A DNA stretch of 64,000 bases from an uncultured Alphaproteobacteria bacterium (GCA_963785735.1 CAWAWJ010000001.1:196873-260872); one strand, 5' to 3'; counted from the stretch's first letter, positions 1,084-33,224 are shown. The notes: generated by a model not told the origin, from the letters alone. Numbers and translations are program-made.

Positions 1084-1644
1084 TCAGCCGGTCCAGTCAC
1101 GCACGAAGCCCGAAGCGTCGGGCGCGGATGCCGGCGGCGCCGGGGCGTCCGGCGTGCCCAAATACATGAAGCCGATAATAGCGTCCGAGGCATTCAATCC
1201 GAGTGCATGTTTCACGAAGGGGTCATAGGCCGGCGCGCCGGTGCGCCACACCGCGCCGAAGCCCAGCGCATGGGCCGCGAGCTGAAGATTCTGCGCCGCG
1301 GCACCCCCGGCCAGCAGCTGTTCCACCGCCGGGATCTTGTGGCCTTCGATGATTTCGGCCGCGACCACGACGATAAGCGGCGCGCGCAACGGCTTGGCCC
1401 GCTCCTTCTCCAGAAGCGGTGGCGTCGCGGTGGGATCGCGGCGCTTCAAGGATTCCGCCATCAACGCGCCGAACCGCACGCGGGCATCTCCCCGCAGCAC
1501 GAGGAACCGCCACGGCCGGAGCTTGCCGTGATCGGGCGCGCGCATGGCGGCGCTGAGAATCGATTTGAGCGCCGCATCGCCGGGCGGCGGGTCCTTCAAC
1601 TGAGCGGGACTGCGGCGCGATAGCAGGGCGTCGAGGGCATCCAT
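1084..1644 (-). CDS. Nitroreductase family protein (YdjA-like)
   Basis: ORF 1084..1680. Contains MDALDALLSRRS, ILSAAMRAPDHGKLRPWRF and AAQNLQLAAHALGFGAVW, which are typical of the nitroreductase fold. Start moved to ATG 1642-1644. Confidence 0.8.
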   Translation of the reverse strand: MDALDALLSRRSPAQLKDPPPGDAALKSILSAAMRAPDHGKLRPWRFLVLRGDARVRFGALMAESLKRRDPTATPPLLEKERAKPLRAPLIVVVAAEIIEGHKIPAVEQLLAGGAAAQNLQLAAHALGFGAVWRTGAPAYDPFVKHALGLNASDAIIGFMYLGTPDAPAPPASAPDASGFVRDWTG

Positions 1645-1740
1645 CGCCCTTCTCTCCCATGCCGCGCGCGCGCGCCGCAACCCCTTGGCGCTGCCGCCAC
1701 GAATCGCGAAGGCTTATTCCTAGCGTCGATTGGCGGATGA

Positions 1741-1820
1741 CCTACCAGGGATAGTTCATTAACAACTTAAAGAGTGGTTAAAAACTCCTTGATTTATATA
1801 GACAATTAATTCATTTTAAC
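1741..1820 (+). promoter_or_regulatory. AT-rich promoter region upstream of the rpfF-like gene
   Basis: Sharp local drop in G+C (ttcattaacaacttaaagagtggttaaaaactccttgatttatatagacaattaattcatttt) just upstream of the ORF. I could not assign -35/-10 hexamers unambiguously. Confidence 0.45.
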
Positions 1821-1875
1821 CATGCCACCGCTTTCGCGTGGGGCGGCTTATCCGGCGGTTCGAGGGGGAACCATC

Positions 1876-2820
1876 ATGAAGACGGTATCGCAGCTTTTAG
1901 ACCCGGCGCGCAAAGCGCCCTCGCCCGGCGACGCCGGCGCGGAATTCGCGCGGCTCCCCGACGCGGTCGAGGTGGCGGTAGGCGGACAGAAATTCTCCCA
2001 ATTCGATCTCGAATACGATCCGGAAAAGAAGATCCTCTTCTGCTACTTCAAATTCGCCGGCCGGCCCTGTTTCACGCCGGACTTGTTGCGCGAAGCCCAG
2101 GCGATCCAGCGCCTGATGCGCGGATTGTTCGGCGACCGCGTCGTCGGCGAGCCGCCGTTGCGTTACATGGTTCTAGGCTCGCGCGCCAAGGGCGTATGGA
2201 ATCTGGGCGGCGATCTCGAGCTGTTCGCTTCTCTCATCCGCAACCGCGACCGCGCGGCTCTGCGCCGCTACGCCCATACCTGCTGCGAGGTGGGCTTCAC
2301 CAACGCCACCGGCCTGGGCTTCGATCTGCCGGTGATCTCGGTCGCGCTGATCCAGGGCGACGCGCTGGGCGGCGGCTTCGAGGCGGCGCTCAGCTCAAAT
2401 CTGATCATCGCCGAGCGCGGCGCCAAGTTCGGCCTGCCCGAAATCCTGTTCAATCTCTTCCCCGGCATGGGGGCCTACAGCTTTCTGACGCGCCGCATCG
2501 CCCCCGGTATCGCCGAGCGAATCATCATGAGCGGCGAGATCTACAGCGCCGAGCAATTGCACGCGCTGGGCGTGGTCGACGTGCTGGCGCCGAACGGCCA
2601 GGGTTTACAGACCTTCTACGATTTCATCGGCCGGCGCGAGCGCCGTTACGCCGCGCAGCGCGCCATGTACCGCGCCCGCCGCCTGGTCAACCCGGTGACC
2701 TTCGAGGAAATGACGCGAATCGCCGATCTCTGGGTCGAGGCCGCCTTCAAGCTCGATGACAGCGATTTGAAGCGCATGGAGCGGCTGGTGACGGCGCAGG
2801 AGCGCCGCGCCCGAGCCTAA
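1876..2820 (+). CDS. rpfF: Crotonase-superfamily protein, RpfF-like DSF (cis-2-enoic fatty acid signal) synthase
   Basis: ORF 1822..2820, start set at ATG 1876 after a gaggggga RBS. The block QGDALGGGFEAALSSNLIIAERGAKFGLPEILFNLFPGMGAYSFLTRRI, with two Glu (codons 2380-2382 and 2440-2442), matches the RpfF signature region as I remember it. So does the tail IADLWVEAAFKL..DLKRMERLVTAQ. Confidence 0.7.
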   Translation: MKTVSQLLDPARKAPSPGDAGAEFARLPDAVEVAVGGQKFSQFDLEYDPEKKILFCYFKFAGRPCFTPDLLREAQAIQRLMRGLFGDRVVGEPPLRYMVLGSRAKGVWNLGGDLELFASLIRNRDRAALRRYAHTCCEVGFTNATGLGFDLPVISVALIQGDALGGGFEAALSSNLIIAERGAKFGLPEILFNLFPGMGAYSFLTRRIAPGIAERIIMSGEIYSAEQLHALGVVDVLAPNGQGLQTFYDFIGRRERRYAAQRAMYRARRLVNPVTFEEMTRIADLWVEAAFKLDDSDLKRMERLVTAQERRARA

Positions 2821-2842
2821 ACGGCCTCGGCCGCGCCGCCCC

Positions 2843-5683
2843 TCACCCGCGTCCTTGGGTGCGGGTCAATTGCTCCAGGCTGGTATCGAGCCGGGTGAAT
2901 TCACCGACGATCTTGTCGAAATAGGCCGTGCCGGTCTGGGACAGATCCTTGGCGGTGACATCCCGCATCGACGTGAGGGTTTCACACAGCCGCACCGCGC
3001 CGACATTGGCGGCGCCGCTCCGGAGCGAATGGGTCACGTCGCGGAAATCCCGCAAATCGGCCTTCTCCACCGCCTGTTTCAAGTGATCGATCAGGCGGCG
3101 CGCATCCTTGCGGAAGGTTTCCACCACCTCGGCCACGAAATCATTGCCGCCCAATGTGCGGAGCGCCTCGAAGGTGCGCTCGTCAATCACCGCGCCCTGA
3201 TCGGGCACGAAGCGCGGATGGGCCGAGATCGGCGTCACCACCTGGGGAGCGAGCAGCGGGCGGCGGTCGGTCAAGGCCGCCCGGCCATGGATTTCGTTGA
3301 TGGCGTTGAGCAATTGAGCGGGCTCCATCGGCTTGGTCAGCACCGCATCCATGCCGGCTTCGCGGCAAAGCCGCTCGGTTTCCGAGGTAACATCGGCCGT
3401 CAATGCCACGATCGGCAGCCGCCATTCGCCGACATGGCCCATGCGATAGAGCTTCGCCACCTCGTAGCCGGTGACGTCGGGCATGTTGATGTCCAGGAGC
3501 GCCAGATCGAAACGCACGCGTTCGAGCGCGGCCAGCGCCTCCTCGCCATCGCTCACCACCTCGACCTGGTGGCCGGCCATTTCCAGGATTTTCTTCAGTA
3601 TCTTGCAATTGGCGGCGTTGTCGTCGGCCACCAGCACCTTGAGCGCGCGCGCGGCCGGGGCGGGCGCCGGGGACTGCGGCCCAGGGGATTGCGGTTGAAC
3701 CGGCGCCGGACGGGCGGACGCGGCGGGATATGAGGCGGGCAATGGGGCCGACTCCGTCATCGGCTGGTTTAGGGACAAAGTCTCGACGCCATGGGCGCGC
3801 GGGTCGCTCGCTAGCATGCTGAGAAGAGCGCTCGCCAGCTGCGCCTCGCTTACCGGCGCTTCGATCACCGCTGTCAGTTGCGCCACGCCCAGCCTCGCGA
3901 CCGCGTCGCTGCCGCGCGGCCCGGCGATGAACAGGATCTGATGCTCCTCGGACGAAGCGTTGCCGAGGCGATGGGCGAGCGACAGTGCGGCCAGTGGATT
4001 GTCGCGGCCGTCGAGCAGCACCACCGCGGGATTGACGCTACCTTTTTTCCCGGCGAGATCGGCCAGGGCCGCCTCACCCTCGGCGTACCAGCGGAGATCG
4101 CCGCGCCAGGCGCGGATGCGCGCCTGCAGCGATGCCGCGAATTCGCTATCCGGCGAGATCAGCGCGAGGTTGCGGCCGGCGAGATCGGGCGGGCGGGCGA
4201 ATCCGGCGGCGTCGGGCTCGAGCGCCAGCTCGACGGTGAAGGTGCTGCCGCGCCCAGCCTCGCTCGAAACCGAGATGGTTCCGCCCATGAGCTCGACCAG
4301 TTGCTTGCAGATCGCCAACCCCAGCCCGGTGCCGCCGAAGCGCCTTGTCACGGTCTCGTCGGCCTGGGCGAAGACCTCGAAGATGCGGGTTTGCGCCTCG
4401 GGCGGGATGCCGACGCCCTCGTCCTTGACGGCAAGCGCCAGGCGCAGCTTGGCGTCTTCCGGACCGAGATAAGAGGCGGTTAGCGATATCCGCCCGCGCG
4501 CTGTGAATTTGATGGCGTTGGCGACCAGATTCACCAGCACCTGGCGCAATTGCAGCGGCAGCCCGCGATAAACCGGCGGCAGGCGCGGATCGACGGCGAG
4601 GGTCAGTGCGAGATTCTTGGCCTCGGCCTGGGGCTTCAATAAGGCCACGACGCTGCCCAGCAGCTCATGCAGCGCGAAGCTCTCGATCGCGGGCTTCAAT
4701 TTGCCGGCTTCGAGTTTCGACAGATCGAGCAGGTCGTTGATCAGGCCCAGCAGGGTCTGGGCGGAGAAACGCATGGTGGCAAGCATGTCGCGCTGTTCGG
4801 CGTCGAGATTGGTGCGGGCGAACAACGCGCCCATGCCGATGAAGCTGTTGAGCGGCGTCCGGAGCTCGTGGCTCATGATGGCGAGGAAGCGGCTCTTGGC
4901 GGCGTTGGCTTCCTCGGCCGCGGCCTTGGCGGCGGTGAGGCGGCGCACCAGCGTGGCGGCGTAGCTCGGCAGCAACGCCAGCGCGACATAGACACCGGCG
5001 GCCTCGGCCGGGCGGCTTTGCCAATAGGGCGTCGAGATCACCACTGCGCCGAAGCCGAGGATCGAGAGCACGGCCGAAGCGGCCAGCGCCCGGAGCCCGA
5101 AGCGGAAGCCGAAGCCGAAGATCACCCAGAGATAGATCGGGAACCACGGCGCCGCATACCCGTCGCCGACATGGAGGAAGACCGAGACGAAGGCGACGTC
5201 GCTTACCAGCGCGGCGGCGCGGCGCAACGTCACCACGTGCGGCACCGCCATCATGTGCACGAACAGCAGCCAGGCGCAGAGCATGCCTGGTACGTCTACC
5301 GCCAGCAGCGGCAACAGCAGATCGCCGCCGACGCCGAGGGCGGCGAGCGCCGCCAAATAGAGCAGCACAACGCCGGTGAAGAAGACGCGGATGATCGCCT
5401 GTTGCGCTTCGCCGCCCGAGCGGGCGCCCAGTTCGGCGGCGATCGGCCCGAGGCCCTTCAACGTGACGATGACAAAAGCGAGCGCCGGCCCGGCGAGACA
5501 TAGCGCCAGAGCGAGCAGGCCCAGAAGAGGATCGAGCGCGGGCCCCAGCTTGAAGGCGCCGATGCCGGCCACCACCAGTGGCGCCAGCACGGCATAAAGC
5601 GCCAACGCCAAAGCGGTAACGCGCGCCTGGCGCCCGACACGGCGGGCTCCCGGCGGGCTCGATGCCTCTTGCCGTTCGGTCAT
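2843..5683 (-). CDS. Hybrid sensor histidine kinase with RpfC-like architecture (polytopic membrane sensor, HisKA, HATPase, degenerate receiver, REC, HPt)
   Basis: 946 aa. The N-terminal ~230 aa are hydrophobic helices (PWFPIYLWVIFGFGFRFG). H-box MSHELRTPLN, G-box GGTGLGLAICKQLVELMGG, REC KVLVADDN..LALLDINMPD..VALTAD..LTKP, HPt THSLRSGAANVGA. Confidence 0.85.
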   Translation of the reverse strand: MTERQEASSPPGARRVGRQARVTALALALYAVLAPLVVAGIGAFKLGPALDPLLGLLALALCLAGPALAFVIVTLKGLGPIAAELGARSGGEAQQAIIRVFFTGVVLLYLAALAALGVGGDLLLPLLAVDVPGMLCAWLLFVHMMAVPHVVTLRRAAALVSDVAFVSVFLHVGDGYAAPWFPIYLWVIFGFGFRFGLRALAASAVLSILGFGAVVISTPYWQSRPAEAAGVYVALALLPSYAATLVRRLTAAKAAAEEANAAKSRFLAIMSHELRTPLNSFIGMGALFARTNLDAEQRDMLATMRFSAQTLLGLINDLLDLSKLEAGKLKPAIESFALHELLGSVVALLKPQAEAKNLALTLAVDPRLPPVYRGLPLQLRQVLVNLVANAIKFTARGRISLTASYLGPEDAKLRLALAVKDEGVGIPPEAQTRIFEVFAQADETVTRRFGGTGLGLAICKQLVELMGGTISVSSEAGRGSTFTVELALEPDAAGFARPPDLAGRNLALISPDSEFAASLQARIRAWRGDLRWYAEGEAALADLAGKKGSVNPAVVLLDGRDNPLAALSLAHRLGNASSEEHQILFIAGPRGSDAVARLGVAQLTAVIEAPVSEAQLASALLSMLASDPRAHGVETLSLNQPMTESAPLPASYPAASARPAPVQPQSPGPQSPAPAPAARALKVLVADDNAANCKILKKILEMAGHQVEVVSDGEEALAALERVRFDLALLDINMPDVTGYEVAKLYRMGHVGEWRLPIVALTADVTSETERLCREAGMDAVLTKPMEPAQLLNAINEIHGRAALTDRRPLLAPQVVTPISAHPRFVPDQGAVIDERTFEALRTLGGNDFVAEVVETFRKDARRLIDHLKQAVEKADLRDFRDVTHSLRSGAANVGAVRLCETLTSMRDVTAKDLSQTGTAYFDKIVGEFTRLDTSLEQLTRTQGRG

Positions 5684-5829
5684 TCGGCGCTCGTCAACGG
5701 ACCCTCCCCCGCCCGTTGGCGGCGATGCGAATCGCCGGGCGGGTTAGAAGGATTCTGACCCCAAGACGGGGAAAAATCCACCTTAGGCGGGGATTCGAGT
5801 TCGGCTCCGGAAGCGAGCAACTCGGGCCC

Positions 5830-7458
5830 TCAGGCGGTGGCTGTGGCGGGGGACGGCAAGGCGCGTTCGACCGGCAAGAAAACCCGCACGGTGGTGCCGG
5901 CATCCTTCTCGCTTTCGATCGTCAGGCGCCCGCCATGCAGCTCGACCAGTCCGATGGCGAGCGGCAGGCCCAGCCCTGTGCCGGCATGGCGGCGGCTCCA
6001 GGTGCTGGCGACCTGGCCGAAGCGAGTGACCGCGGTCTCGATCTCCATCTTGTCCATACCGATGCCGTGATCGGATACGGCGATTTCGAGCCCATTCTTG
6101 GCCAGACGGGCGGAGAACTCGACATGCCCGCCAGGATGGCTGAACTTGATGGCGTTGGTGATGAGATTGAGCAGCACCTGCTTGAGCTTCAAGCTGTCGA
6201 CGCGGTAGCGCGGCAACCGGGGCGCGATATCGGTATCGATGGTGATATCGAGGGCGCGGGCGCGCTCGGCGACCAGCTGCATCACGTCGCGCACGATCTG
6301 CGGAATTTCGGCTTCTTCCTCGTCGAGTTCGACCTTGCCGGCCTCGAGCTTGGAGACGTCGAGAATGTCGCTGATGATGCCGAGAAGATGCTGGGCCGAC
6401 GCGCAGATGTCGCGCGCATAGCCCGTGTAGCGCGGGCTGCCCATGGGACCCATCACCTCGTCGGCCATCACCTGGGAGAAGCCGATGATGGCGTTCAAGG
6501 GCGTGCGCAATTCGTGGCTCATATTGGCGAGGAATTCGGATTTGCTGCGGCTGGCGAGTTCGGCCTCTTCCTTGGCGGCGACCAAAGTCAGCTCGGCCTC
6601 TTTCCGCTCGGTGATGTCGAGCGCAACGGTGACCACCAGCATCGGTCTTCCGGCCTGATCCTTCAACAGCGCCTTGGTGGTGAGCAGCACGCGCTCCTCA
6701 CCCTTGGGCGTCTTGACGGTTTCCTCGTTGGAGCCGGGCTGCTCCAATCCGCCGATGATGCGGCGGTCGCGCGCGGTTTCCTCGCGGGCGCGCTGATCGT
6801 TGCTCACTGCATCCGGCGTCTGGCCGATGATCGTAGCCGCCCTCTTGCCGACGCTGCGCGCGAACCAGTCGTTGACGAAGACATAGCGGCCGTCGCGGTC
6901 GGTGGCGACCACCGCCATCGGCACGGCGTCGATGACGCGCAACAGCAGCTCGTGGCTTTCCCGAAGCGCATCCTGGTGGCGGCGCGATTCCTCGACGATG
7001 CGTTCCTCGAGCGAGGAGGCGCGCGCTTTCAGCAGCAATTGCTGGCGGCGCAACGTCAAGAGGTTGCGCGAGCGCACGCGGAATTCGTGATGATCGACCG
7101 GGCTGAGCAGATAGTCGGTGGCGCCGGCCTCGAGCGCCTGATAACGCAGATCGCGGTCCTCGTAGGCGGTGATGACGATCACCGGCACGTCGACGCAAGC
7201 CGCGATCTCGCGGATGTGGCGAATGAAGGCCGCACCGTCGAGCTCCGGCATGTTGAAATCGGTGATGACCAGATCGGGCGGCGCTTGCGCGAACGCGTCG
7301 AGCGCGCTTTGCGGCCGGTCATAGGTGTTGACCTCAACGCCTTCGAGCGAGCGGGCGAGCCGTTCCAGAATCTTCAGATTGGTCACGCGGTCGTCAACGA
7401 TGGCGACGGTCTGGAGCTTCACCCCGGACTCCGATGTCAGAACGGAAAAGTCCCGCAC
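5830..7458 (-). CDS. REC-PAS-HisKA-HATPase sensor kinase (N-terminal receiver domain)
   Basis: 542 aa. REC VAIVDDRV..DLVITDFNMPELDG..VITAY..LLSP, then a PAS-like segment (VIDAVPMAVVATDRDGRYVFVND), H-box MSHELRTPLN and G-box HAGTGLGLPLAIGLVELHGG. Confidence 0.85.
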   Translation of the reverse strand: MRDFSVLTSESGVKLQTVAIVDDRVTNLKILERLARSLEGVEVNTYDRPQSALDAFAQAPPDLVITDFNMPELDGAAFIRHIREIAACVDVPVIVITAYEDRDLRYQALEAGATDYLLSPVDHHEFRVRSRNLLTLRRQQLLLKARASSLEERIVEESRRHQDALRESHELLLRVIDAVPMAVVATDRDGRYVFVNDWFARSVGKRAATIIGQTPDAVSNDQRAREETARDRRIIGGLEQPGSNEETVKTPKGEERVLLTTKALLKDQAGRPMLVVTVALDITERKEAELTLVAAKEEAELASRSKSEFLANMSHELRTPLNAIIGFSQVMADEVMGPMGSPRYTGYARDICASAQHLLGIISDILDVSKLEAGKVELDEEEAEIPQIVRDVMQLVAERARALDITIDTDIAPRLPRYRVDSLKLKQVLLNLITNAIKFSHPGGHVEFSARLAKNGLEIAVSDHGIGMDKMEIETAVTRFGQVASTWSRRHAGTGLGLPLAIGLVELHGGRLTIESEKDAGTTVRVFLPVERALPSPATATA

Positions 7459-7571
7459 GATTGGCGTCCTTCAGTATCGGCGCGGGTTAACCCCGCATCA
7501 AGCGGGATGAATACTGGTAAATCATGGTTAATAAAGAGTTACCGTATTGAAAAATCTGGGGAAAACCCCGA

Positions 7572-8330
7572 TCAGGCGGCCGCCAGGGTGAGTTGCGATT
7601 CGCCGATGCCGGCGAAGCGCGCGACCACCGGGGCGCCGGGCGGTGCGATGATCAGGCCGGTATGCGAGCCGGTGGTGACATAATCGCCCGCTTTCAACAT
7701 GCGTCCGCGCTTGGCGGCATGATTGGCGAGCCAGGCGAGGAGCCGCTTCGGGTGGCCGGCGGGATTGCCGCCCACGGCATGGGCCGCCTCGCGCCCGCCG
7801 ATCAACAGGCTCGCCTCGGGCTTCAGGAGATCGAGCGTGCGCCAATCCGCCGCTGGCGGCCCGTAACAGAACCCGCCATTCGAAAGATTGTCGGCCAGTA
7901 GCGCCAGCTCCGGCACCGCCTTGCGGTCGACGAAACGGGTATCGAGAAATTCGATCGCGGGATGGAGACTTTCGACTGCGTCCCACGCTTCGTCCTCGCC
8001 ATAGGGCCGGTCGCGCGCCGGCAGGTCATGGCCGAGACGCAGCGCGATTTCGGCCTCGACGCCGTTCAAGCCGGTGCGCGAGGCAAGCAGATGCGCCGGG
8101 CTTTTCACCACATGACCGGCGAAAAGCGGCGCGCAAGACGGCGGCGATTTGGGACCGGGAGATCCTACCTTCCAGCCGGACACCTTCACGCCGAGCTTGG
8201 CCGCCACCAGCTCCTGTACTTGATAGGCGTCGTCCTCCCCGCGGGGGCACAGCTCGGGCGCCAGGCTGATGATGCGGCGGCCGCTGATGCGCGCGCCGAT
8301 CAGAAGTGCGGCGAGGCGCTCGGCGGACAT
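7572..8330 (-). CDS. 2-keto-4-pentenoate hydratase family protein (MhpD/HpcG-like hydratase/decarboxylase)
   Basis: 252 aa. DDAYQVQELVAAKLGVKVSGWKVG and the C-terminal GDYVTTGSHTG.. are typical of this FAH-related hydratase family. Motif-level call only. Confidence 0.6.
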   Translation of the reverse strand: MSAERLAALLIGARISGRRIISLAPELCPRGEDDAYQVQELVAAKLGVKVSGWKVGSPGPKSPPSCAPLFAGHVVKSPAHLLASRTGLNGVEAEIALRLGHDLPARDRPYGEDEAWDAVESLHPAIEFLDTRFVDRKAVPELALLADNLSNGGFCYGPPAADWRTLDLLKPEASLLIGGREAAHAVGGNPAGHPKRLLAWLANHAAKRGRMLKAGDYVTTGSHTGLIIAPPGAPVVARFAGIGESQLTLAAA

Positions 8331-11050: not shown

Positions 11051-11902
11051 CTAAACGGATGAAGACCCGCCAGCAAGTCCGCGCATTTTATGGATGCGTT
11101 TGTTGAAACTTCGCCGCCAGCGCGCGAGATTGCGGTGGCGGTGGTTCCAGGCGGCCTGCTCGATGGCGGCGATCGCCCGTGGCGGGGGCGCGAAGGCCGC
11201 CGAAACATCCATCAGGCCGGGGTGGCGGGCGGGATCGCATAACAGCGCCATGCCCGATGGCGTGGCCCACAACATCCGCGCCTTGAGGCCGGAAAGTTTC
11301 TCGATCTCGGCCAAGCCGGGCTCGAGACCGAATTCGCACACGTCGTGGAAGAGATAGGCCGCGCCGGGCGCCGCCTTGGCGCGCACCGCCTGGTAATCGA
11401 GCACGATTTGCGCGCTGGTGTGCATTCCGTCGATGAAGGCGAAGTCGACCGGGCCGCCGAGTTCGCGGTCGACCACCGAGGCCACATCCTGCGGCGAGAC
11501 GCCCTTGACCACGCGCGCCGGCAATTTGCCCGCGACGGCGATGCGGTTGGTGAGGTCGATGCCGTACAGGCTGTTCTCGTCGGTGCCGGCGTCGAGCGCG
11601 ACGACGCGGCCGTCGCCCAAAAGCGCGGCGATGGCGAGCGTGCTCCAGCCCAGCGCGTTGCCGATCACCAATGCGCGCTTGGGCCGGTAGGCCGCCAGCA
11701 AATGCTCGAGCAGATAGACCTCCTGCATGGCGATGCCGAGGCCATTGGTGAGGCTTTTGCCGTCCTTGAAGTACCAGGTGAAGGTGGCGCCGACGTAACC
11801 GTCATAGCGATGCGGCGGCAAGCCGGTCGAAATCTCGATGCCTTGGGCGCGATAGAGTTCGGTGAGGGTGCCGATGATGGGCATGGAAGGAAGGTAAAGC
11901 AC
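11051..11902 (-). CDS. Class I SAM-dependent methyltransferase
   Basis: 283 aa with the Rossmann motif ALVIGNALGWSTLAIAALLGDGRVVALD and FAFIDGMH. Start is uncertain (GTG 11902 or ATG 11884). Confidence 0.6.
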   Translation of the reverse strand: MLYLPSMPIIGTLTELYRAQGIEISTGLPPHRYDGYVGATFTWYFKDGKSLTNGLGIAMQEVYLLEHLLAAYRPKRALVIGNALGWSTLAIAALLGDGRVVALDAGTDENSLYGIDLTNRIAVAGKLPARVVKGVSPQDVASVVDRELGGPVDFAFIDGMHTSAQIVLDYQAVRAKAAPGAAYLFHDVCEFGLEPGLAEIEKLSGLKARMLWATPSGMALLCDPARHPGLMDVSAAFAPPPRAIAAIEQAAWNHRHRNLARWRRSFNKRIHKMRGLAGGSSSV

Positions 11903-11917
11903 GGCCCCGGCGGGAGC

Positions 11918-11945
11918 AAAAGCCTTTTGGCGGCAAAAGGCTTTT
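11918..11945. promoter_or_regulatory. Perfect 11-bp inverted repeat (AAAAGCCTTTT-N6-AAAAGGCTTTT) in a divergent intergenic region
   Basis: Read directly: aaaagcctttt ggcggc aaaaggctttt. It lies between the divergently transcribed methyltransferase and FAD/Fe-S oxidase genes, so I read it as operator-like rather than a terminator. Confidence 0.4.
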
Positions 11946-11990
11946 CACGGCATCTGGCGTTTTGGCGCGCCTTCCCGTCTAATCTTCCCC

Positions 11991-14897
11991 ATGGCGAAAG
12001 CGGGACCGGAAACGCGGCTCGAAACCAGGCTGAGGCGCGCGCTCAAGGGCGAGGTGCTGTTCGACGGCTTCTCGCGCGGTCGCTACAGCACGGACGCCTC
12101 GCTCTACCAGATCGAGCCGGTGGGCGTGGCGGTGCCGCGCGACCGCGAGGATGTGGCGGCGGCGCTCGAAATCGCGCGCGAGGAAGGGGTGGCGTTGCTG
12201 CCGCGCGGCGGCGGCACCTCGCAATGCGGCCAGGCGGTGGGCCGGGCCCTGGTGCTCGATTGCAGCAAATACATGAACCAGGTCGTGGCGATCGACGCTT
12301 CAACGCGCCGCGCGCGGGTCCAGCCCGGGCTGGTACTGGAGCAGCTCAATCGCCAGCTCAAGGCGAAGGGCCTGTTCTTCCCGGTCGATGTCTCGACCGC
12401 GGACCGCGCCACCATCGGCGGCATGACCGCCAATAATTCCTGCGGCGCGCGCTCGCTGCGCTACGGCAACATGGTGCACAATGTGCGCGGCATCGACGCG
12501 CTCCTGTCCGACGGCACGGCGGCGGTGTTCGGCGAGGTGCCGGGAAACTTCGGAGCCGATAGCGAGGGCCGCGCCATGCCCGAACGCTACCGCGATCTGG
12601 TGCGCCACATGCGCGACCTGCACCGTCGCGAAGCCGCCGAAATCGGCAAGCGTTTTCCGAAACTGCTGCGCAAGGTGGGCGGCTACAACATCGACATGAT
12701 CGCGGATGAAGGCCACAACATGGCGCATCTGCTGGTGGGATCGGAGGGCACGCTCGCCTTCTTCAACGAGATCGAACTCGACCTCCAGCCGATCCCGCCG
12801 CACCGCGTGCTCGGCATCTGCCATTTCCCGAGCTTCCACCAGGCGATGCAAGCCACCAAGGCGATCGTGGAATTGAAACCGACCGCGGTCGAGCTGGTCG
12901 ACCGCACCATGATCGAGCTGTCGCGCGCGATCCCTATGTTCCGCGCCACGGTCGAGAAATTTGTGCAAGGCCTACCCGACGCGCTGTTACTGGTCGAATT
13001 CGCCGGCGAGGACAAGGCGGAGAACGAGCGGCGCCTGAAACAACTGGTCGAGCTGATGGGCGAGCTGGGACTGCCGGGTGCCGTGGTCGAGGCGACCGAC
13101 AACGCCTTCCAGAGCGCGGTGTGGGACGTGCGCAAGGAAGGCCTCAACATCATGATGTCGATGAAGGGCGACGGCAAACCGATCTCCTTCATCGAGGATT
13201 GCGCCGTGCCGCTGGAGGACCTGGCGGAATACACCGCGCGCCTCACCGAGGTGTTCGCGAAACACGGCACCACCGGCACCTGGTATGCCCACGCCTCGGT
13301 CGGCTGTTTGCATGTGCGCCCGATCCTCAACCTGAAACAGGAGATCGAGGTCAAGAAGATGCGCGCCATCGCCGAAGAGGCCTTCGCCATGGTGCGCGAA
13401 TACAAGGGCTCGCATTCGGGCGAGCATGGCGACGGGCTGGTGCGCTCGGAATTCCACGAGCCCATGTACGGGAAGGAAATCATCCGCGCCTTCGAGGAGG
13501 TGAAGGACGATTTCGACCCGTTGGGGATGATGAACCCCGGCAAGATCGTGCGCCCCTCCAAGATGGACGACCGCTCCTTGTTCCGCTTCAAGCCGGGCTA
13601 CCGGACGGAAAAACTCGACACCGCGCTCGACTGGTCGGAATGGGGCGGCTTCGGCGGCGCGGTCGAGATGTGCAACAACAACGGCGCCTGCCGCAAATGG
13701 GACGTGGGCGTGATGTGCCCTTCCTACCGGGCGACGGGGGACGAACAGCATCTGACGCGCGGCCGCGCCAACAGCCTGCGCCTGGCGATCTCGGGGCAAT
13801 TGGGGCCGGATGCGCTTGCCTCCGAGGCGATGCGCGAGACCATGGAGCTGTGCATCTCTTGCAAGGGCTGCAAGCGCGAATGCCCGACCGGCGTCGACAT
13901 GGCGCGGATGAAGATCGAGTTCCTGCATCAATGGCGCAAGCGCCACGTTCCGAGCCTGCGCGAGGAAATGATCGCCTATCTGCCGCGCTACGCGCCCCTG
14001 GCGTCGCGGCTGCGGGGATTGCTCAATCTGCGCGACCGCGTGCCGGGCCTGGCGAGCTTGAGCGAAAAACTCACGGGCTTCTCGGCCCGGCGCAAGCTGC
14101 CGCGCTGGCACAAGCAGCCCTATCAAGACGCGGCGGGCGCAGGCGCGGGGCGCGAGGTGGTGCTGTTCGCCGACACCTTCAACCGCTGGTTCGAGCCCGA
14201 GAATGCGCGCGCCGCCTGGCGCGTGCTGGACCGCGCGGGCTACCGGGTGGTGAACCTGCTGCCGCCGGGCATTCCGGCTTCGGCCATGCGGCCTTTATGC
14301 TGCGGCCGCACCTTCCTGTCGGTGGGATTGATCGAGCAGGCGAAGGAAGAGGCGTTGCGCACCATCGCGGTGTTGAAACCCTTCGTCGATCGCGGCGTGC
14401 CGGTCATCGGGCTGGAGCCCTCCTGTCTTTTGACCTTGCGCGACGAATTCCCCGGACTGATCCCGGGCGAGGATGCGAAGGCGCTCGCCAAGCAGGCCGT
14501 GCTGTTCGAGGAATTCATCGCGGCGGAGAAAGCAGCCGGGCGGTTCAATCTCGCTTTCAAGCTGCTCAAGGCCAAGGCGGTGTTGCACACCCATTGCCAC
14601 CAGAAAGCGTTTGGGATCGCGGGCGCGAGCGCGGCGGCGCTGAGACTAATCCCCGGCCTCGAGGTCGAGACTTTCGATTCGACCTGTTGCGGCATGGCCG
14701 GAGCTTTCGGCTACGAAGCCGAGCATTACGACATGTCGGTGAAGATCGGCGAGATCGGCGTGCTGCCCAAGATGCGCGCGGCGGCCCCGGACACGATCCT
14801 GGCCGCGCCGGGCACGAGCTGCCGCTGCCAGATCGAAGACGGCACGGCGCGCACGGCGTTGCACCCGGCGGTGATATTGGACAATGCCAGTTCCTAG
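11991..14897 (+). CDS. FAD-binding oxidase fused to an Fe-S/CCG-domain module (GlcD-GlcF-type fusion, YdiJ-like 2-hydroxyacid dehydrogenase)
   Basis: 968 aa. FAD PCMH-type N-terminus (VAVPRDREDVAAALEIAREEGVALLPRGGGTSQCGQ), 4Fe-4S motif CISCKGCKRECPTG, and C-terminal Cys-rich CCG motifs (CCGRTF, CCGMAGAFG). Confidence 0.85.
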   Translation: MAKAGPETRLETRLRRALKGEVLFDGFSRGRYSTDASLYQIEPVGVAVPRDREDVAAALEIAREEGVALLPRGGGTSQCGQAVGRALVLDCSKYMNQVVAIDASTRRARVQPGLVLEQLNRQLKAKGLFFPVDVSTADRATIGGMTANNSCGARSLRYGNMVHNVRGIDALLSDGTAAVFGEVPGNFGADSEGRAMPERYRDLVRHMRDLHRREAAEIGKRFPKLLRKVGGYNIDMIADEGHNMAHLLVGSEGTLAFFNEIELDLQPIPPHRVLGICHFPSFHQAMQATKAIVELKPTAVELVDRTMIELSRAIPMFRATVEKFVQGLPDALLLVEFAGEDKAENERRLKQLVELMGELGLPGAVVEATDNAFQSAVWDVRKEGLNIMMSMKGDGKPISFIEDCAVPLEDLAEYTARLTEVFAKHGTTGTWYAHASVGCLHVRPILNLKQEIEVKKMRAIAEEAFAMVREYKGSHSGEHGDGLVRSEFHEPMYGKEIIRAFEEVKDDFDPLGMMNPGKIVRPSKMDDRSLFRFKPGYRTEKLDTALDWSEWGGFGGAVEMCNNNGACRKWDVGVMCPSYRATGDEQHLTRGRANSLRLAISGQLGPDALASEAMRETMELCISCKGCKRECPTGVDMARMKIEFLHQWRKRHVPSLREEMIAYLPRYAPLASRLRGLLNLRDRVPGLASLSEKLTGFSARRKLPRWHKQPYQDAAGAGAGREVVLFADTFNRWFEPENARAAWRVLDRAGYRVVNLLPPGIPASAMRPLCCGRTFLSVGLIEQAKEEALRTIAVLKPFVDRGVPVIGLEPSCLLTLRDEFPGLIPGEDAKALAKQAVLFEEFIAAEKAAGRFNLAFKLLKAKAVLHTHCHQKAFGIAGASAAALRLIPGLEVETFDSTCCGMAGAFGYEAEHYDMSVKIGEIGVLPKMRAAAPDTILAAPGTSCRCQIEDGTARTALHPAVILDNASS

Positions 14898-15811
14898 TCG
14901 AGCCCGGCCAGGCTCCGCGCGAAATCCTTGGCGATGAAGGGCCGCAGATCGTCCTCTTTCTCGCCGACTCCGATGAAATAAACCGGCAGCTTGAATTTCT
15001 CGGCCAAGGGCACCAGCACGCCGCCCTTGGCCGTGCCGTCGAGCTTGGTCATGGCCAATCCTGTCACGCCGATCATGTCGCGGAAGGTTTCGGCTTGCGC
15101 CAGCGCGTTCTGGCCGACCGTGGCGTCCAGCACCAGCAGCACGGCGTGGGGCGCCTCCGCATCGGCCTTTTTCATCACGCGGAGAATCTTCTGCAACTCC
15201 TCCATCAATGTCGCCTTGTTGTGGAGCCGCCCGGCGGTGTCGATCAGCAGCACATCGGCGTTCTGTTTCTTCGCCAAGGCCAGCGCGTCGAAGGCCAACC
15301 CCGCCGGGTCCGATCCGGCGTCGCGCGCCACGACATTCGCGCCCGCGCGCTCGCCCCAGATTTTGAGCTGTTCCACCGCCGCGGCCCTGAAGGTGTCACA
15401 GGCGGCGAGCACGACCGATTTGCCCTCGCCAGTAAAGCGCTTGGCGAGCTTGCCGATAGTGGTGGTCTTGCCGCCGCCATTGACGCCGACCACCAGCACG
15501 ACGAAGGGCCGGGCGGTCCCGAGGAGGAAATGTCCCTCCACCGGCGCCAGCGAACGGGCGATTTCCTCGGCCAGCACCGCGCGCACGTCCTCGCCGGTCG
15601 CTTCTTTGTCGAGCCGGGTCTGGCGCAAACGTTCGGTCACTTGCGACGCAAGGCCGGTGCCAAGATCGGCAGCGATCAACAGCTCTTCAAGCCCGTCGAG
15701 GGTATCCCGGTCGAGCTTGCGCTTGGTCAAAACGCCGGAGATGCCGTCGGTCAAGTTGCGCGAGGAACGCGCGAGGCCGGATTTGAGCCGGGCGAAGAGT
15801 CTGCCGTTCAT
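14894..15811 (-). CDS. ftsY: Signal recognition particle receptor FtsY (short form)
   Basis: 305 aa. SRP GTPase motifs GVNGGGKTTTIGKLA, DTAGRL, TKLDGTAKGG. Sits in the conserved dapF-mtaB-ftsY order. Confidence 0.9.
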   Translation of the reverse strand: MNGRLFARLKSGLARSSRNLTDGISGVLTKRKLDRDTLDGLEELLIAADLGTGLASQVTERLRQTRLDKEATGEDVRAVLAEEIARSLAPVEGHFLLGTARPFVVLVVGVNGGGKTTTIGKLAKRFTGEGKSVVLAACDTFRAAAVEQLKIWGERAGANVVARDAGSDPAGLAFDALALAKKQNADVLLIDTAGRLHNKATLMEELQKILRVMKKADAEAPHAVLLVLDATVGQNALAQAETFRDMIGVTGLAMTKLDGTAKGGVLVPLAEKFKLPVYFIGVGEKEDDLRPFIAKDFARSLAGLD

Positions 15812-27943: not shown

Positions 27944-28150
27944 CGTCCCCCCTCCCCGCGCGTTTTTTTAACCATAGGCCGGGGACGAAACATCTTCCAG
28001 GCCGGAACGGGAGGCCGTTATGCGGGCCCGAAGCCAGTTGCCGCAAGACCAGAAGCGTCCAACGCGCGGCCGGAGGCGGGGCGCCCTACGAAGATCGTGG
28101 TAAATCCGCGAGTTTGGCGCCGAGATTAACCAGACTGATCGCGGCGTTAA

Positions 28151-28290
28151 GACTTCATCAACCAATTACTATATTCGATCAAGACTAACTGTCGGTATTT
28201 CTTCTATGTTATTACATATTATTACCTAAATAACAAAATTCTTTGCACGAATACTTATTTATATATTGGAAATTCTTGCACATTAGGCTA
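28151..28290 (+). promoter_or_regulatory. Strongly AT-rich promoter/regulatory island upstream of the EPS locus
   Basis: By my base count 39 of 140 nt are G or C (about 28 percent) in an otherwise GC-rich window. Contains near-identical direct repeats AAATTCTTTGCAC (28236-28248) and AAATTCTTGCAC (28270-28281). Confidence 0.55.
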
Positions 28291-28402
28291 CAAGCTTGAC
28301 AGCGGCGCCTCCCAACGTCGGAGGCTTTGACAGGTCGGTGGTTCGCAGAACGCGCATCCGGTCCGTCTCGCGTCCTTGGATTGAGAAGGAACGAGAGCGA
28401 AC

Positions 28403-29818
28403 ATGTTGCGTATCTTCGGCCACTTCGTGCCCGTGCCCGCCTTGCTGGTGGGCCTGTGCGAAATTTTCCTGATCTCGCTGGCGCTGCTCATCGCGCTCGG
28501 GCCCGCCCCGGCCGAGGCGCTGGTTCAAATCCATTTCATCTCGCCCTCCATGCAATTCACCGCCGGATTCACGGGCCTGGCGATCGGCGCCATGAGCGTG
28601 GTCGGGCTTTACAACTACGACGTCTTCCTCAATTCGCGCGTGATGATCACCAAGATCGTGGTGGCGCTGGCGCTGGTCGTGCCGGTGGCGGCGTTGCTGT
28701 GCGCCTTCTTCGCCAACGAGGCCTATGGCGGCCATTTGGGCTCCTGGGCGGCGTTGTGCTTCAAGGGCAGCCTCGCCTGGATGGGCGGCGTGATCGTGAC
28801 GCGCGTGGGCTTCCTCCATTATTCCAGGGTCGAGAGCTTCCGCCGCCGCATCATCGTGCTCGGCACCGGCGTGAGGGCGGCGCGCATCGCCGAATTGGCC
28901 AGTTCCGGCCGCAACCGCTATTTCGTGCCCAAGGCCTTCGTCCACGCCCATGGCGACATGCACCTGGTTTCGGGCTCGGCGCTCGACCTCGACCAGACCA
29001 AGGACCAGCACGCGCTCGCCAAATTCGCCCGCGAGGTGCGCGCCAAGGAAGTGGTGGTGGCGACCGACGACCGCCGCGGCATGCCGTTGACCCAGCTGCT
29101 CCATTGCAAGATCGCCGGCGTCAACGTGGTCGATTACCTGACCTTCTGGGAGCGCGAGAACGGCCGCGTCGATATCGAGGCGTTGCAGCCGAGCTGGCTG
29201 ATCTTCTCCGACGGCTTCCGCCAGGGCGCGGTGGTCGACGCCATGAAGCGCGTCTTCGACCTCGTCATGAGCTTCATCCTGCTGACCGCGACCTTGCCGG
29301 TCATCGCCTTGACCGCGCTTGCCATCAGGCTCGAAAGCCCCGGCCCGGTGCTCTACCGCCAGGAGCGCAGCGGTTATCACGGCCGGCCCTTCACCCTCTT
29401 CAAGTTCCGCAGCATGCGCCCGGACGCCGAAATCGGCGGCACGCCGCAATGGGCCGCCCAAGCCGATCCGCGCGTGACCCGCGTGGGCGCGATCATCCGC
29501 AAATACCGCATCGACGAGCTGCCGCAGCTTTTCAACGTGTTCCGCGGCCAGATGAGCTTCGTCGGCCCGCGCCCCGAGCGGCCGTTTTTCGTCACGCAAC
29601 TGGCCCGGGACATTCCGTTCTACGAGGAGCGCCACGCGGTGAAGCCGGGCATCACCGGCTGGGCCCAGGTCAATTGCTCCTACGGCGCCTCGCTCGACGA
29701 CGCGCGCCTGAAGCTCGCCTACGACCTTTATTACGTGAAGAACCGCACCCTGTTCCTCGACATCGTGATCCTGATCCAGACCGTCCGGGTGATCCTGTTC
29801 CACGAGGGGGCGCGCTAG
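28403..29818 (+). CDS. Polyprenyl-phosphate sugar phosphotransferase (priming transferase; EpsB-type, PEP-CTERM-system associated)
   Basis: 471 aa. N-terminal TM helices, then a bacterial sugar transferase domain ([13 protein letters not shown]..., [45 protein letters not shown]). Confidence 0.85.
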
Positions 29819-29822
29819 AGCC

Positions 29823-31847
29823 ATGGACTTCGCCCCGGTCACGGCATCGATCTGCGCCGGCGCCTTCGCCGCGCTGTTCCTGTTCACGCTGGCGCGCGGC
29901 AAGCCCTCGCGCGAGGGCCGCTTCGTGCTGGCCGCGTCGGCGGCGACGGTGTTGTGGGCGCTCGCAACCGCGTTCGGCGGCGCGGCGCTCGGCGATTTCG
30001 TGCCGCTGCTGGAGACCGTGCAGGGCCTGATCTGGCTCGCGTTGCTGGCGATGCTGCTGCGGCCGCAGCCGGGCGACGCGAAGCGCCTCTCCTATTGGCG
30101 GGCCGCGATCTGGGGCGGATGCGTGGCCGGTCTTTCGGTCATAGCCGACGATCTGGTGCATTGGGCCGGGGCGGGCGATCTCGCCGTGCCGCAGATCCTG
30201 GCGCGCGAGGGACTGGCCGTGGCCGGGCTGCTGCTGGTCGAGAATCTCTACCGCAACACCGAGCAGAAGCGGCTCTGGAACGTGGCGCCGTTGTGCATCG
30301 CCATCGGCGGCTTCTTCGCCTATCAGCTGTTCCTCTATTCGAACGCGCTCTTGACCGGGCACGTCAATCCGCTCTTCGCCGAGGCGCGGCTGGCGGCGAC
30401 GGCGCTGAGCGCGCCCTTCCTGGCGCTCACGCTGGCGCGCAACCGCGACTGGCGCATCGACATCCATATTTCACGCCGGGTCGTGTTCCACACCTTCACC
30501 CTGGTGGTGAGCGGCGGATTCCTGCTCGCGGTCGCGGCGCTGGGCGCGGCGGTTCACGAGATGGGCGGCGCATGGGGCCCGGCGGTGCAGGTGATATCGC
30601 TGTTCGGCGCGATCCTGGTGCTGGCGCTGGTGCTGTCCTCGGGCGGCGCACGGGCGCGGTTCAAATACCTGGTGTCGCGGAATTTCTTCTCGCTGCGCTA
30701 CGACTACCGCCTCGAATGGATGAACTTCATCGAGACCCTGTCGGCGCGCGGCGAGGGCGAGGATTTGAAGCATCGCGTGATCGAGGCGGTGGCCAATATC
30801 GTCGACAGCCCGCGCGGCGCGCTGTGGCTGATCGACGGCCAAGCAGGATACCGCCCGGCGGCGGGCTTCGACTTGCGGCTGGCTTCGGGCGCGCGTGAAT
30901 CGGCGGACGGCGCTTTCGTCGCCGGTTTCCGCGGCGGCGCCTGGATCCAGGACATGACCCAGGAAATCGCTTCCCCGGACGATCCCGCGAACTGGCGCGC
31001 GAGCGCCGATTTCTGGCTGGCGGTGCCGTTGACGCATCGCGGACGCCTGATCGGTTTCATCACGCTCACCCGCCCGCGCGCGCCGCTCGACCTCAATTGG
31101 GAAAGCTTCGAGCTGCTCCGCGCCGTGGCGCGCCAGGCGGCGAGCTATATCTGCGAGGAACGCGCGGCGCAGGCGCTGGCGGATGCGCGCGGCCTCGAGC
31201 AATACGGCAAGCGTTTCGCCTTCCTCGGCCACGACATCAAGAACCTGGCGGGCCAATTGCGGCTGATCGCCGAAAACGCGAGGATTCACGGCGACGATCC
31301 CGCTTTCCGCGCCGACGCCTTCCGCACCATCGAAAGCTCGGTCGCGCGCATGAACAAGCTCTTGTCGCAAATGAAGGCGGGCGCGGCGGAGCCGGCCCTT
31401 GCCGATCCGGCCGCTCTGATCGCCGAGGTGGCGCGCGATCTTTCCGGCCCCGGCCTGGAAGTCCAGGCCGAAATTCGCGGCACCGGAGCCGTCCGCATCG
31501 AGGCCGAAAAGCTTCGCTCGGCCCTGACCCATCTCGTCAGCAACGCCATCGAGGCCTCGCGCCCGGGCCAGGCCGTAATCCTGCGCGTTGGGATCGAGGC
31601 GGGCAATCTCGTCATCGAGGTCGCCGATCGCGGCCCCGGCATGACGCATGAATTCATAGAGAGCGATCTGTTCCGTCCGCTCCGCACCACCAAGGCGGGC
31701 GGCCACGGCATCGGCGCCTATCAGACGCGCGAGCTCATTCGCGCGGCGGGCGGCGAGATCGACGTCGTTTCATCCCCCGGCGCTGGCACCACCATGCGCA
31801 TCGTACTTCCCCTAGCGAGTGAAGGAGCCGTCTCAACCGCGGCGTAA
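29823..31847 (+). CDS. prsK: PEP-CTERM-system histidine kinase PrsK
   Basis: 674 aa. The polytopic N-terminal half, GAF-like middle, H-box FLGHDIKNLAGQL and HATPase (GGHGIGAY) give the PrsK size and layout. Lies immediately upstream of prsR and prsT. Confidence 0.8.
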   Translation: MDFAPVTASICAGAFAALFLFTLARGKPSREGRFVLAASAATVLWALATAFGGAALGDFVPLLETVQGLIWLALLAMLLRPQPGDAKRLSYWRAAIWGGCVAGLSVIADDLVHWAGAGDLAVPQILAREGLAVAGLLLVENLYRNTEQKRLWNVAPLCIAIGGFFAYQLFLYSNALLTGHVNPLFAEARLAATALSAPFLALTLARNRDWRIDIHISRRVVFHTFTLVVSGGFLLAVAALGAAVHEMGGAWGPAVQVISLFGAILVLALVLSSGGARARFKYLVSRNFFSLRYDYRLEWMNFIETLSARGEGEDLKHRVIEAVANIVDSPRGALWLIDGQAGYRPAAGFDLRLASGARESADGAFVAGFRGGAWIQDMTQEIASPDDPANWRASADFWLAVPLTHRGRLIGFITLTRPRAPLDLNWESFELLRAVARQAASYICEERAAQALADARGLEQYGKRFAFLGHDIKNLAGQLRLIAENARIHGDDPAFRADAFRTIESSVARMNKLLSQMKAGAAEPALADPAALIAEVARDLSGPGLEVQAEIRGTGAVRIEAEKLRSALTHLVSNAIEASRPGQAVILRVGIEAGNLVIEVADRGPGMTHEFIESDLFRPLRTTKAGGHGIGAYQTRELIRAAGGEIDVVSSPGAGTTMRIVLPLASEGAVSTAA

Positions 31848-31851
31848 TGTC

Positions 31852-33213: not shown

Positions 33214-33224
33214 GTTTCCGGAGA

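Follow-up and report, generated by a model that had tools for sequence, protein, structure and literature searches.

The 64,000-nucleotide (nt) stretch of DNA considered here (the window), from an uncultured member of the Alphaproteobacteria, carries at positions 1741-7571 three genes that, judged by their sequences, very probably form a signalling module in the DSF (diffusible signal factor) family, built on the rpfF/rpfC/rpfG plan known in Xanthomonas campestris pv. campestris (Xcc). An RpfF-like crotonase gene faces a gene for an RpfC-like hybrid sensor kinase, and the place of rpfG is taken by a second kinase gene, whose product has the architecture REC-PAS-HisKA-HATPase. This arrangement is one output variant of a large family of alphaproteobacterial rpf-type modules that is apparently undescribed. 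That the second kinase is the partner of the RpfC-like kinase, and that the mechanism proposed below applies as a whole, is held with less assurance, as a probable reading. The closest homologues come from metagenome-assembled genomes of Stellaceae (Rhodospirillales), with identities of up to 94%, in agreement with the alphaproteobacterial origin suggested by an earlier reading of this DNA made from its sequence alone (the original prediction). The listing of open reading frames (ORFs) calls the three genes within the following layout, where lengths of proteins are in amino acids (aa).

1741-1875, plus strand: AT-rich region 5′ of the rpfF-like gene (G+C fraction 0.46 for 1700-1880; CtrA-box-like motifs)
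1876-2820, plus strand: RpfF-family crotonase, putative DSF-family signal synthase, 314 aa (Pfam, NCBIfam, PDB search, BLASTP, tree)
2821-2842, between strands: 22-nt spacer at which the rpfF-like and rpfC-like genes converge, stop codon to stop codon
2843-5683, minus strand: RpfC-like hybrid sensor kinase, 946 aa (Pfam domains; BLASTP against Xcc RpfC)
5684-5829, minus strand: 146-nt spacer from kinase gene to kinase gene, with a terminator-like hairpin at 5778-5790
5830-7458, minus strand: REC-PAS-HisKA-HATPase kinase, 542 aa, in the rpfG position (Pfam; BLASTP against RpfG; locus comparison)
7459-7571, minus strand: AT-rich region 5′ of the REC-PAS kinase gene (TTAACCAT half-site; near-full CtrA-like boxes)

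The original prediction had recognized in the ORF at 1876-2820, from its motifs and two glutamates, the signature of RpfF rather than that of a generic enoyl-CoA hydratase. The translation does contain GDALGGGFEAALS, GLPEILFNLFPGMGAYSF and ADLWVEAAFKL...MERLV, and also GGGFEAALS, and sequence searches of the PDB agree with this assignment. The protein matches 7zq7 (E=1.1e-59), Xcc RpfF (3m6m, E=1.6e-58), Burkholderia Bcam0581 (5fus, E=2.7e-48) and Cronobacter RpfF (6dgn, E=3.6e-48), to be compared with E=4.7e-15 for the best generic enoyl-CoA hydratase and E=3.2e-12 for DspI of Pseudomonas aeruginosa (5wyb). Over 270 aa the protein shares 42% of its residues with Xcc RpfF (E=1e-67), and the alignments to RpfF structures reach the C-terminus, taking in the RpfF-specific C-terminal helices. 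The catalytic Glu pair of the motifs GGGFE and LPE, E169 (2380-2382) and E189 (2440-2442), 20 residues apart, aligns with the Glu of Xcc RpfF and Bcam0581 and is invariant in 24 relatives. In a neighbour-joining tree rooted on two generic crotonases and drawn without support values, the ORF falls inside the RpfF family, in an alphaproteobacterial clade that is sister to Bcam0581 together with the xanthomonad proteins. By these comparisons, the product of 1876-2820 is identified as a true RpfF-family crotonase.

The 946-aa kinase converges with this gene at a distance of 22 nt, as had been described, and has the domain layout of RpfC: Pfam places HisKA at 262-327, HATPase_c at 376-489, Response_reg at 683-796 and Hpt at 852-938, behind a hydrophobic stretch of about 250 aa. 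Its parts, all on the minus strand, are as follows.

5444-5683, minus strand: N-terminal extension, aa 1-80, with two hydrophobic segments (hydropathy)
4928-5443, minus strand: RpfC/RpfH-type membrane input domain, aa 81-252 (BLASTP against Xcc RpfC and RpfH)
4217-4900, minus strand: HisKA, aa 262-327 (phospho-accepting H272 at 4868-4870), and HATPase_c, aa 376-489 (Pfam)
3821-4162, minus strand: degenerate receiver-like domain, about aa 508-621 (hhalign against a REC profile)
2870-3637, minus strand: canonical receiver, aa 683-796 (D731, 3491-3493), and HPt, aa 852-938 (H885, 3029-3031) (Pfam)

Homology to RpfC extends into the sensory part of the protein. The Xcc sequence used for comparison was taken from locus L085, found in a metagenome scan with the Xcc RpfF fragment. 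With this RpfC, BLASTP gives two high-scoring segment pairs. The first (38% identity over 420 aa, E=7e-83) begins in the sensor peptide, spans the transmembrane region and continues into the kinase core; the second lies over REC-HPt (32% over 219 aa). Neither Pfam nor NCBIfam has a family matching the N-terminus (aa 1-250). When it is aligned alone by BLASTP, aa 81-252 match aa 8-178 of Xcc RpfC with 29% identity (E=7e-18) and RpfH with 27% identity (E=1e-15), and on these alignments the kinase is taken to be an RpfC homologue, input domain included. In Xcc, the perception of DSF depends on five residues in the sensor peptide of RpfC, R15, D17, S18, E19 and Q22 (Cai et al., PMC5391125). The corresponding residues in the window are R88, G90, G91, E92 and Q95, so that three of the five are kept and the ligand of this sensor may differ from Xcc DSF.

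Two segments have no counterpart in Xcc RpfC. The N-terminal extension (aa 1-80), which precedes the RpfC-type sensor peptide, shows protein-level conservation confined to the Stellaceae clade (86% in L001 and 46% in L004, and also in L006, L007 and L008). It implies either a topology of seven transmembrane segments with the N-terminus outside or another placement of the sensor peptide. The other segment is inserted between the catalytic domain and the receiver and is about 130-200 aa long; every one of the 65 alphaproteobacterial RpfC-like proteins examined has it, and the corresponding gap in Xcc RpfC measures only about 30-48 aa. NCBIfam finds no match in this mid-region (aa 491-683), and the likeness to a receiver is seen only by profile-profile comparison (hhalign: 95.4% probability, E=1.9e-8, 109 columns); the acidic pocket and the Lys are degenerate. 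The receiver of Xanthomonas RpfC binds RpfF, and it may be speculated that the degenerate receiver-like domain could be an RpfF-docking module.

The gene at 5830-7458, the first of the two minus-strand genes, does encode a REC-PAS-HisKA-HATPase kinase, as the original prediction held, with the following domains.

7078-7407, minus strand: REC, aa 18-127 (Pfam Response_reg)
6598-6930, minus strand: PAS_4, aa 177-287 (Pfam)
6337-6546, minus strand: HisKA, aa 305-374 (Pfam)
5866-6198, minus strand: HATPase_c, aa 421-531 (Pfam)
Key residues, minus strand: D22/D23, phospho-acceptor D67 (7258-7260), T97, Ser119 (7102-7104) and H315 (6514-6516)

Over the receiver and the helical linker that follows it, identity to Xcc RpfG is 35% (E=5e-25). 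Ser119 stands where receivers carry a conserved Lys, which RpfG retains. NCBIfam is uninformative on the receiver alone: it holds no RpfG-specific model, and Xcc RpfG itself best matches a NosR-family model. All of the motifs H, N, G1 and G2 are intact in the kinase core, which is assigned to PleC in the KEGG Orthology annotation of JGI and scores about 190-200 bits with the DivJ and PdhS models, compared with about 110-120 for the RpfC-like kinase. Its top matches in the PDB are generic (7z8n, HK853, RetS and DivL) and do not allow a partner to be predicted. With its phospho-accepting N-terminal receiver, PAS domain and intact core, the protein fits the type of receiver-regulated REC-PAS kinases. 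Automated labels for the gene vary between 'PleC', 'ATP-binding protein' and 'response regulator'.

Two identities were considered for this third protein and ruled out. It is not RpfG, as Pfam finds PAS_4-HisKA-HATPase_c where RpfG has HD-GYP, nor is it RpfR, as it has no GGDEF or EAL domain and its PAS domain matches the RpfR PAS (6dgg) in the PDB only at E=0.9, which is not significant. For the latter reason no claim of fatty-acid binding by the PAS domain is made; its best match in the PDB is an unrelated sensor PAS (3ewk, 8.7e-8). In the 64-kb window, tblastn searches that included the Xcc HD-GYP domain as a query found no HD-GYP or GGDEF-EAL gene, and only one further receiver, that of an NtrC-type regulator (31816-33210) lying 24 kb away.

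The role of the third gene becomes clearer from a comparison of loci. A scan with an RpfF profile, using one genome per species, gave 80 loci, nearly all of them alphaproteobacterial, and the set analysed comprises 82 non-redundant loci, including two added by exact-protein look-up. Among the groups represented are Stellaceae, Inquilinus, Skermanella, Acetobacteraceae, Sphingomonadales, Pseudovibrio, Aureimonas, Stappia and Rhizobium species. The full three-gene module, with rpfF, the RpfC-like kinase gene and a REC-PAS gene directly upstream of the latter on the same strand, is found in 58 of the 82, and the kinase gene is convergent with rpfF within 1.5 kb in 53. In the module loci, the input domains of the RpfC-like kinases are 30-56% identical to that of the window, and the first ~280 aa of the third protein (REC-PAS) are 33-92% identical to the window's across the 58 loci. 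The output that follows is GGDEF-EAL in 48 loci, with one more ending after the GGDEF domain, and HisKA-HATPase in nine non-redundant loci plus the window. A third version, HisKA_2 (HWE-like), is found in two Skermanella species (L012, 2611-4161; L020, 2649-4232), where the REC-PAS-HisKA_2 genes, with the same receiver signature, are placed on the other side of rpfF and not upstream of the RpfC-like gene. All three versions were confirmed when output types were checked by Pfam in eight loci.

The receivers of these proteins share an unusual signature. D[FY]L.[ST]P[VI]DH, with Ser or Thr in place of the near-universal Lys, is present in all third genes of L001-L084 and L165-L167, while the acidic pocket (D, D), the phospho-acceptor Asp and the Thr are invariant across third-gene receivers. 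In a neighbour-joining tree of REC-PAS sequences, again without support values, the kinase-type proteins share a single clade with some GGDEF-EAL members, an arrangement that suggests repeated swapping of the output domain on the REC-PAS unit. The genes of the module also stay together in relatives despite unrelated insertions. In L001, an alpha/beta hydrolase gene (11165-12016) is inserted between rpfF and the sensor kinase gene, and the gap between the kinase genes is 147 nt. In L004, the insertions (11066-11827 and 14798-15388) are an HpcH/HpaI aldolase gene between rpfF and the sensor gene and a DUF1275 gene between the kinase genes.

A search started from the REC-PAS unit revealed many more REC-PAS-HisKA-HATPase proteins of about 525 aa, and the context of three of them (L165, L166 and L167) was examined. 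L166 is a full module, with a sensor 42% identical to Xcc RpfC; the REC of its kinase-type protein is 42% identical to the REC of RpfG and 32% identical to RpfC's own REC. In L167 (8001-12149, Stellaceae), a REC-PAS-HisKA-HATPase gene is followed by an adjacent RpfC-like paralogue without rpfF: no RpfF-type synthase lies near the pair, the adjoining crotonase being generic. The RpfC-like protein of L167 has Gln for the phospho-accepting His of the H-box (ISQALRAP) and no recorded Response_reg or Hpt domain. The association also has limits on the side of the synthase. Neither an RpfC-like kinase gene nor a REC-PAS gene accompanies rpfF in 16 of the 82 loci (L019, L025, L026, L035, L069, L078 and others), some of which have a full 10-kb flank on the usual kinase side; some alphaproteobacterial RpfF homologues are thus encoded away from a sensor gene or work with another sensor.

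Given that the third gene always starts with an orthologous REC-PAS unit, the REC-PAS kinase most likely receives phosphate from the HPt of the RpfC-like kinase, as RpfG does. In the proposed mechanism, the RpfF-like crotonase, to judge by its family membership and its two catalytic Glu, would make and release a cis-2-unsaturated fatty-acid signal. The RpfC-like kinase would sense this signal through its RpfC/RpfH-type input domain, ligand and activity both being presumed, and phosphate would pass within it from His272 to Asp731 and on to His885 of the HPt. Conserved synteny and REC-PAS orthology point to Asp67 in the receiver of the REC-PAS-HisKA-HATPase protein as the next acceptor. The phosphorylated receiver, possibly together with a PAS ligand, would then switch the attached PleC/DivJ-like kinase core, which would act on an unlinked response regulator. 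The output of the module in this lineage would be protein phosphorylation and not turnover of cyclic di-GMP (c-di-GMP). Catalytic and phospho-accepting residues are intact in all three proteins (for the sensor H272, D731 and H885; for the second kinase D67 and H315). The control exerted on the kinase core may run in either direction, activating or inhibiting.

Several points weigh against this reading of the module and its relay. Every step of the mechanism is read from sequence comparison. In the sensor, D17 and S18 of RpfC are replaced by Gly, and the two extra hydrophobic segments at the N-terminus leave the topology uncertain. In the second kinase, the receiver is without the conserved Lys and switching may be atypical; moreover, neither the window nor any kinase-type locus has a response regulator gene linked to that of this kinase (the search took in ten kinase-type and HisKA_2-type loci, and none was consistently present). 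The two kinase genes had been described as a two-gene minus-strand unit. They are neighbours on the same strand, but can be called co-transcribed only presumptively, as 146 nt with a terminator-like hairpin separate them; in L004 the DUF1275 gene lies between them. In L165 (8001-9572), a REC-PAS kinase paralogue, 58% identical and with the same Lys-less receiver, is an orphan with neither an RpfC-like nor an RpfF-like neighbour. The 64-kb window is part of a contig of at least 2.2 Mb, and an RpfG-type or other cognate regulator could also lie beyond it. The gap and its hairpin, the unrelated gene in L004, the existence of orphan paralogues and the limitation of the genome view to 64 kb would all suit a situation in which the RpfF/RpfC-like pair is a DSF system and the REC-PAS kinase is an independent PAS sensor, or belongs to another pathway, and is not a phospho-partner. 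In that case the HPt of the RpfC-like kinase would have its target in an unlinked regulator, such as a protein of the HD-GYP or GGDEF-EAL kind, and a parallel exists in RpfS of Xcc, a PAS_4-containing kinase that senses DSF independently of RpfC (PMC4159695). Such independence is nevertheless fairly unlikely. In 58 of the 82 loci, spread over many alphaproteobacterial families, the REC-PAS unit stands directly upstream of the RpfC-like gene, its association with that gene survives the swaps of output domain and is also seen in the paralogous pair without rpfF, and its REC resembles the REC and linker of RpfG. It is this linkage, maintained while outputs are swapped, that leads to the second kinase being proposed as the partner.

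A partner relation could also take another form, in which the receiver of the 542-aa protein accepts phosphate from the HPt but acts as a sink, or hands it on to its own DHp histidine, without an allosteric switch. In multistep relays of the TodS type, the receiver passes phosphate to its own DHp histidine. This possibility fits the absence of the Lys normally needed for a phosphorylation-induced switch in a receiver that keeps all its phospho-acceptor residues, and tethered receivers acting as sinks have been documented (PMC3868531). It appears quite improbable, since in about 49 loci the output behind such a Lys-less receiver is GGDEF-EAL, where hand-on from Asp to His is impossible, and allosteric control is the simplest mechanism common to GGDEF-EAL and kinase outputs; in addition, the receiver of CheS3 controls the activity of the kinase to which it belongs and does not take its phosphate from that kinase (PMC3868531). 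Doubt could finally be extended to the synthase, which might be a metabolic enoyl-CoA hydratase or isomerase with a kinase neighbourhood devoid of signalling meaning. Pfam returns only the generic families ECH_1 and ECH_2, and NCBI names homologues 'crotonase/enoyl-CoA hydratase family protein' (the JGI label is 'DSF synthase'). A further point against the RpfF assignment is that the crotonase scores 247 bits with NF053515, the xanthomonad equivalog 'diffusible signal factor synthase RpfF', for which the cut-off is 550. With this model, a 245-aa fragment of Xcc RpfF reaches 523 bits and the validated Bcam0581 is lower still, at 185; because a validated Burkholderia synthase scores so little, NF053515 defines a xanthomonad subgroup and not a function. 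The family-wide model is NF006452 (cut-off 177 bits), which gives 351 bits for the window protein, 396 for the Xcc fragment and 398 for Bcam0581. A metabolic role is very improbable in view of E-values that differ by 40 orders of magnitude for RpfF-type and generic crotonases, an alignment to Xcc RpfF that takes in the specific C-terminal helices, the position in the RpfF clade and the convergent pairing with an RpfC-homologous sensor gene in at least 58 loci.

Outside the coding regions, the original prediction placed AT-rich promoters at both outer ends of the module. Their AT-richness is confirmed, with G+C fractions of 0.46 (1700-1880) and 0.51 (7459-7600) compared with about 0.65 in the surrounding DNA; they can be called promoters only presumptively, as a scan of 1600-7700 gave no sigma-70 consensus promoter. 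Both carry motifs resembling binding sites of CtrA. The CtrA half-site TTAACCAT, as defined in PMC3692519, occurs four times in the window versus 0.24 expected, and TTAA-N7-TTAAC with at most one mismatch occurs 12 times versus 0.67 expected (whole-window shuffles). One half-site (1816-1823) lies 53 nt upstream of the rpfF-like ATG, an alternative ATG of this gene at 1822 overlapping the motif, and another (7524-7531) lies 66 nt upstream of the GTG of the REC-PAS kinase gene. Near-full sites are located at 1766-1792 and 7486-7543. In local dinucleotide shuffles, a half-site arose by chance in either module promoter with P of about 0.009, and in both in 0 of 5000 trials. The motif recurs in both promoters of L004 and in one of L001, and only occasionally across the wider locus set. 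Divergent from the rpfF-like gene is a gene of the nitroreductase family (1084-1680, minus strand), whose position is kept in L001, L004 and L006 (66-82% identity).

Other CtrA-box-like motifs are positioned at 27968-28162 and 40956-41179. Near-full sites cluster there too, in two intergenic regions between divergent genes of a polysaccharide-biosynthesis cluster, one next to the Bac_transf gene at 28403 and the other in the interval from GT2 to Polysacc_synt_3 (about 41.1-41.3 kb); one TTAACCAT, at 40956, falls within the GT2 coding region. This exopolysaccharide-type cluster (about 28400-42900) includes a Bac_transf priming transferase (28403-29818), a GT2 glycosyltransferase and a Polysacc_synt_3 flippase, with ORFs also listed at 40097-41137 and 41310-42851, and embedded in it is the gene for the NtrC-type sigma-54 response regulator (REC-AAA-HTH_8, 31816-33210). 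As a lead, the motifs are compatible with CtrA-type control of both the module and the polysaccharide genes, which would fit the PleC/DivJ-like kinase core.

Work on DSF has so far dealt almost entirely with Xanthomonadales, Burkholderia, Pseudomonas and a few enterobacteria, and the established cases end in c-di-GMP turnover or in a conventional regulator. Modules of the RpfF/RpfC type are common across Alphaproteobacteria, where the dedicated receiver protein appears to have swapped its output several times, and in the version found in the window a histidine kinase stands in for the second-messenger enzyme. Should the relay operate in the proposed way, the module would represent a naturally rewired quorum-sensing output, and would offer a defined protein pair for studying how a Lys-less receiver controls two kinds of output. 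A broader picture is a long shot: a widespread, as yet undescribed DSF-type branch in alphaproteobacteria, built on a Lys-less receiver-PAS adaptor with an output exchangeable among GGDEF-EAL, HisKA kinase and HisKA_2 kinase, that in Stellaceae would lead by way of a PleC/DivJ-like kinase into the DivK/CtrA network, with feedback on the synthase and kinase genes through CtrA boxes and co-regulation of exopolysaccharide. Were it true, a fatty-acid quorum-sensing signal would feed into the master regulator of the alphaproteobacterial cell cycle and motility. Searches for fatty-acid signals in Alphaproteobacteria that live in soil, in association with plants or in the sea could start from these loci.

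Among known systems, the rpf cluster of Xanthomonas campestris is the obvious reference. The gene order given in the original prediction, with rpfG, rpfH and rpfC convergent with rpfF, is found in the Xcc-type locus L085 (100% identical to the Xcc RpfF fragment), where rpfB and rpfF run in one direction and rpfC, rpfH and rpfG face them; rpfC encodes 726 aa there and the spacer between rpfF and rpfC is 12 nt. The window follows the same plan, with rpfF in one direction and, convergent with it, the sensor kinase gene followed by that of the receiver protein. The likeness extends to all three proteins: the synthases are 42% identical, the sensors are homologous from the sensor peptide and the input domain of five transmembrane segments through HisKA, HATPase, REC and HPt, and the receiver and linker of the third protein are 35% identical to those of RpfG. 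The differences are concentrated in the output. RpfG has HD-GYP and keeps the receiver Lys, whereas the window protein has PAS-HisKA-HATPase, and thus no c-di-GMP phosphodiesterase, and Ser in place of Lys. The window sensor also has the extra segment of about 80 aa at its N-terminus and the extra degenerate receiver-like domain, and the window is without rpfH and without an adjacent rpfB.

Closer still are the sibling modules with rpfF, rpfC-like and REC-PAS-GGDEF-EAL genes, for example in Pseudovibrio (L034), Inquilinus (L030) and Sphingomonadales (L051). They have the same three-gene order, an RpfC-like kinase with the same degenerate receiver and an orthologous REC-PAS unit with the same Lys-less signature; the GGDEF-EAL output keeps c-di-GMP turnover, whereas the window has a histidine kinase. 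The RpfF-RpfR systems of Burkholderia and Cronobacter share the RpfF-family synthase, and in both RpfR and the window protein PAS adjoins the output domain. RpfR, however, lacks a receiver and does not need an RpfC-type kinase, while the window protein has no GGDEF-EAL and a PAS without significant similarity to that of RpfR. In Xcc, DSF is bound by RpfS (XC_2579), a soluble hybrid kinase with PAS_4 (PMC4159695). Compared through its published description, RpfS resembles the window kinase in being cytoplasmic, in its PAS_4-type domain and in linking DSF signalling to a kinase output; it differs in its length of 955 aa, its several PAS/PAC domains and C-terminal receiver, and in being unlinked to rpfF/rpfC and independent of RpfC (PMC4159695), whereas the window kinase has an N-terminal receiver and is seated in the rpf module.

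Control of one kinase by another is itself known. TodS is such a case, as is the action of LadS on GacS. The original prediction had regarded a kinase-to-kinase wiring as undescribed, and this part of it does not stand. In Rhodospirillum centenum, CheA3 phosphorylates the receiver of CheS3, a REC-REC-PAS-HWE kinase acting on CheY3, and this phosphorylation inhibits the kinase (PMC3868531). As proposed for the window, an upstream kinase controls a REC-PAS kinase through its N-terminal receiver, in the same order, Rhodospirillales. The upstream kinase is of the CheA type in one case and a hybrid HisKA-REC-HPt sensor in the other; CheS3 has an HWE core and a second, degenerate receiver where the window kinase has a HisKA core; and the CheA3/CheS3 system has no link to a fatty-acid signal synthase. 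A 2015 review of DSF signalling lists as sensors RpfC/RpfG, RpfR, RpfS, BCAM0227 and PA1396, and as non-xanthomonad rpfF-rpfG-rpfC clusters only those of Methylophaga, Leptospirillum, Thiobacillus and Methylobacillus (PMC4504480). The open-access papers searched contained no account of an rpf-type module in Alphaproteobacteria or of a kinase in the rpfG position. What is new relative to these systems is the DSF context: a proposed kinase-to-kinase wiring within a DSF-family module, and interchangeable outputs on one receiver-PAS platform.

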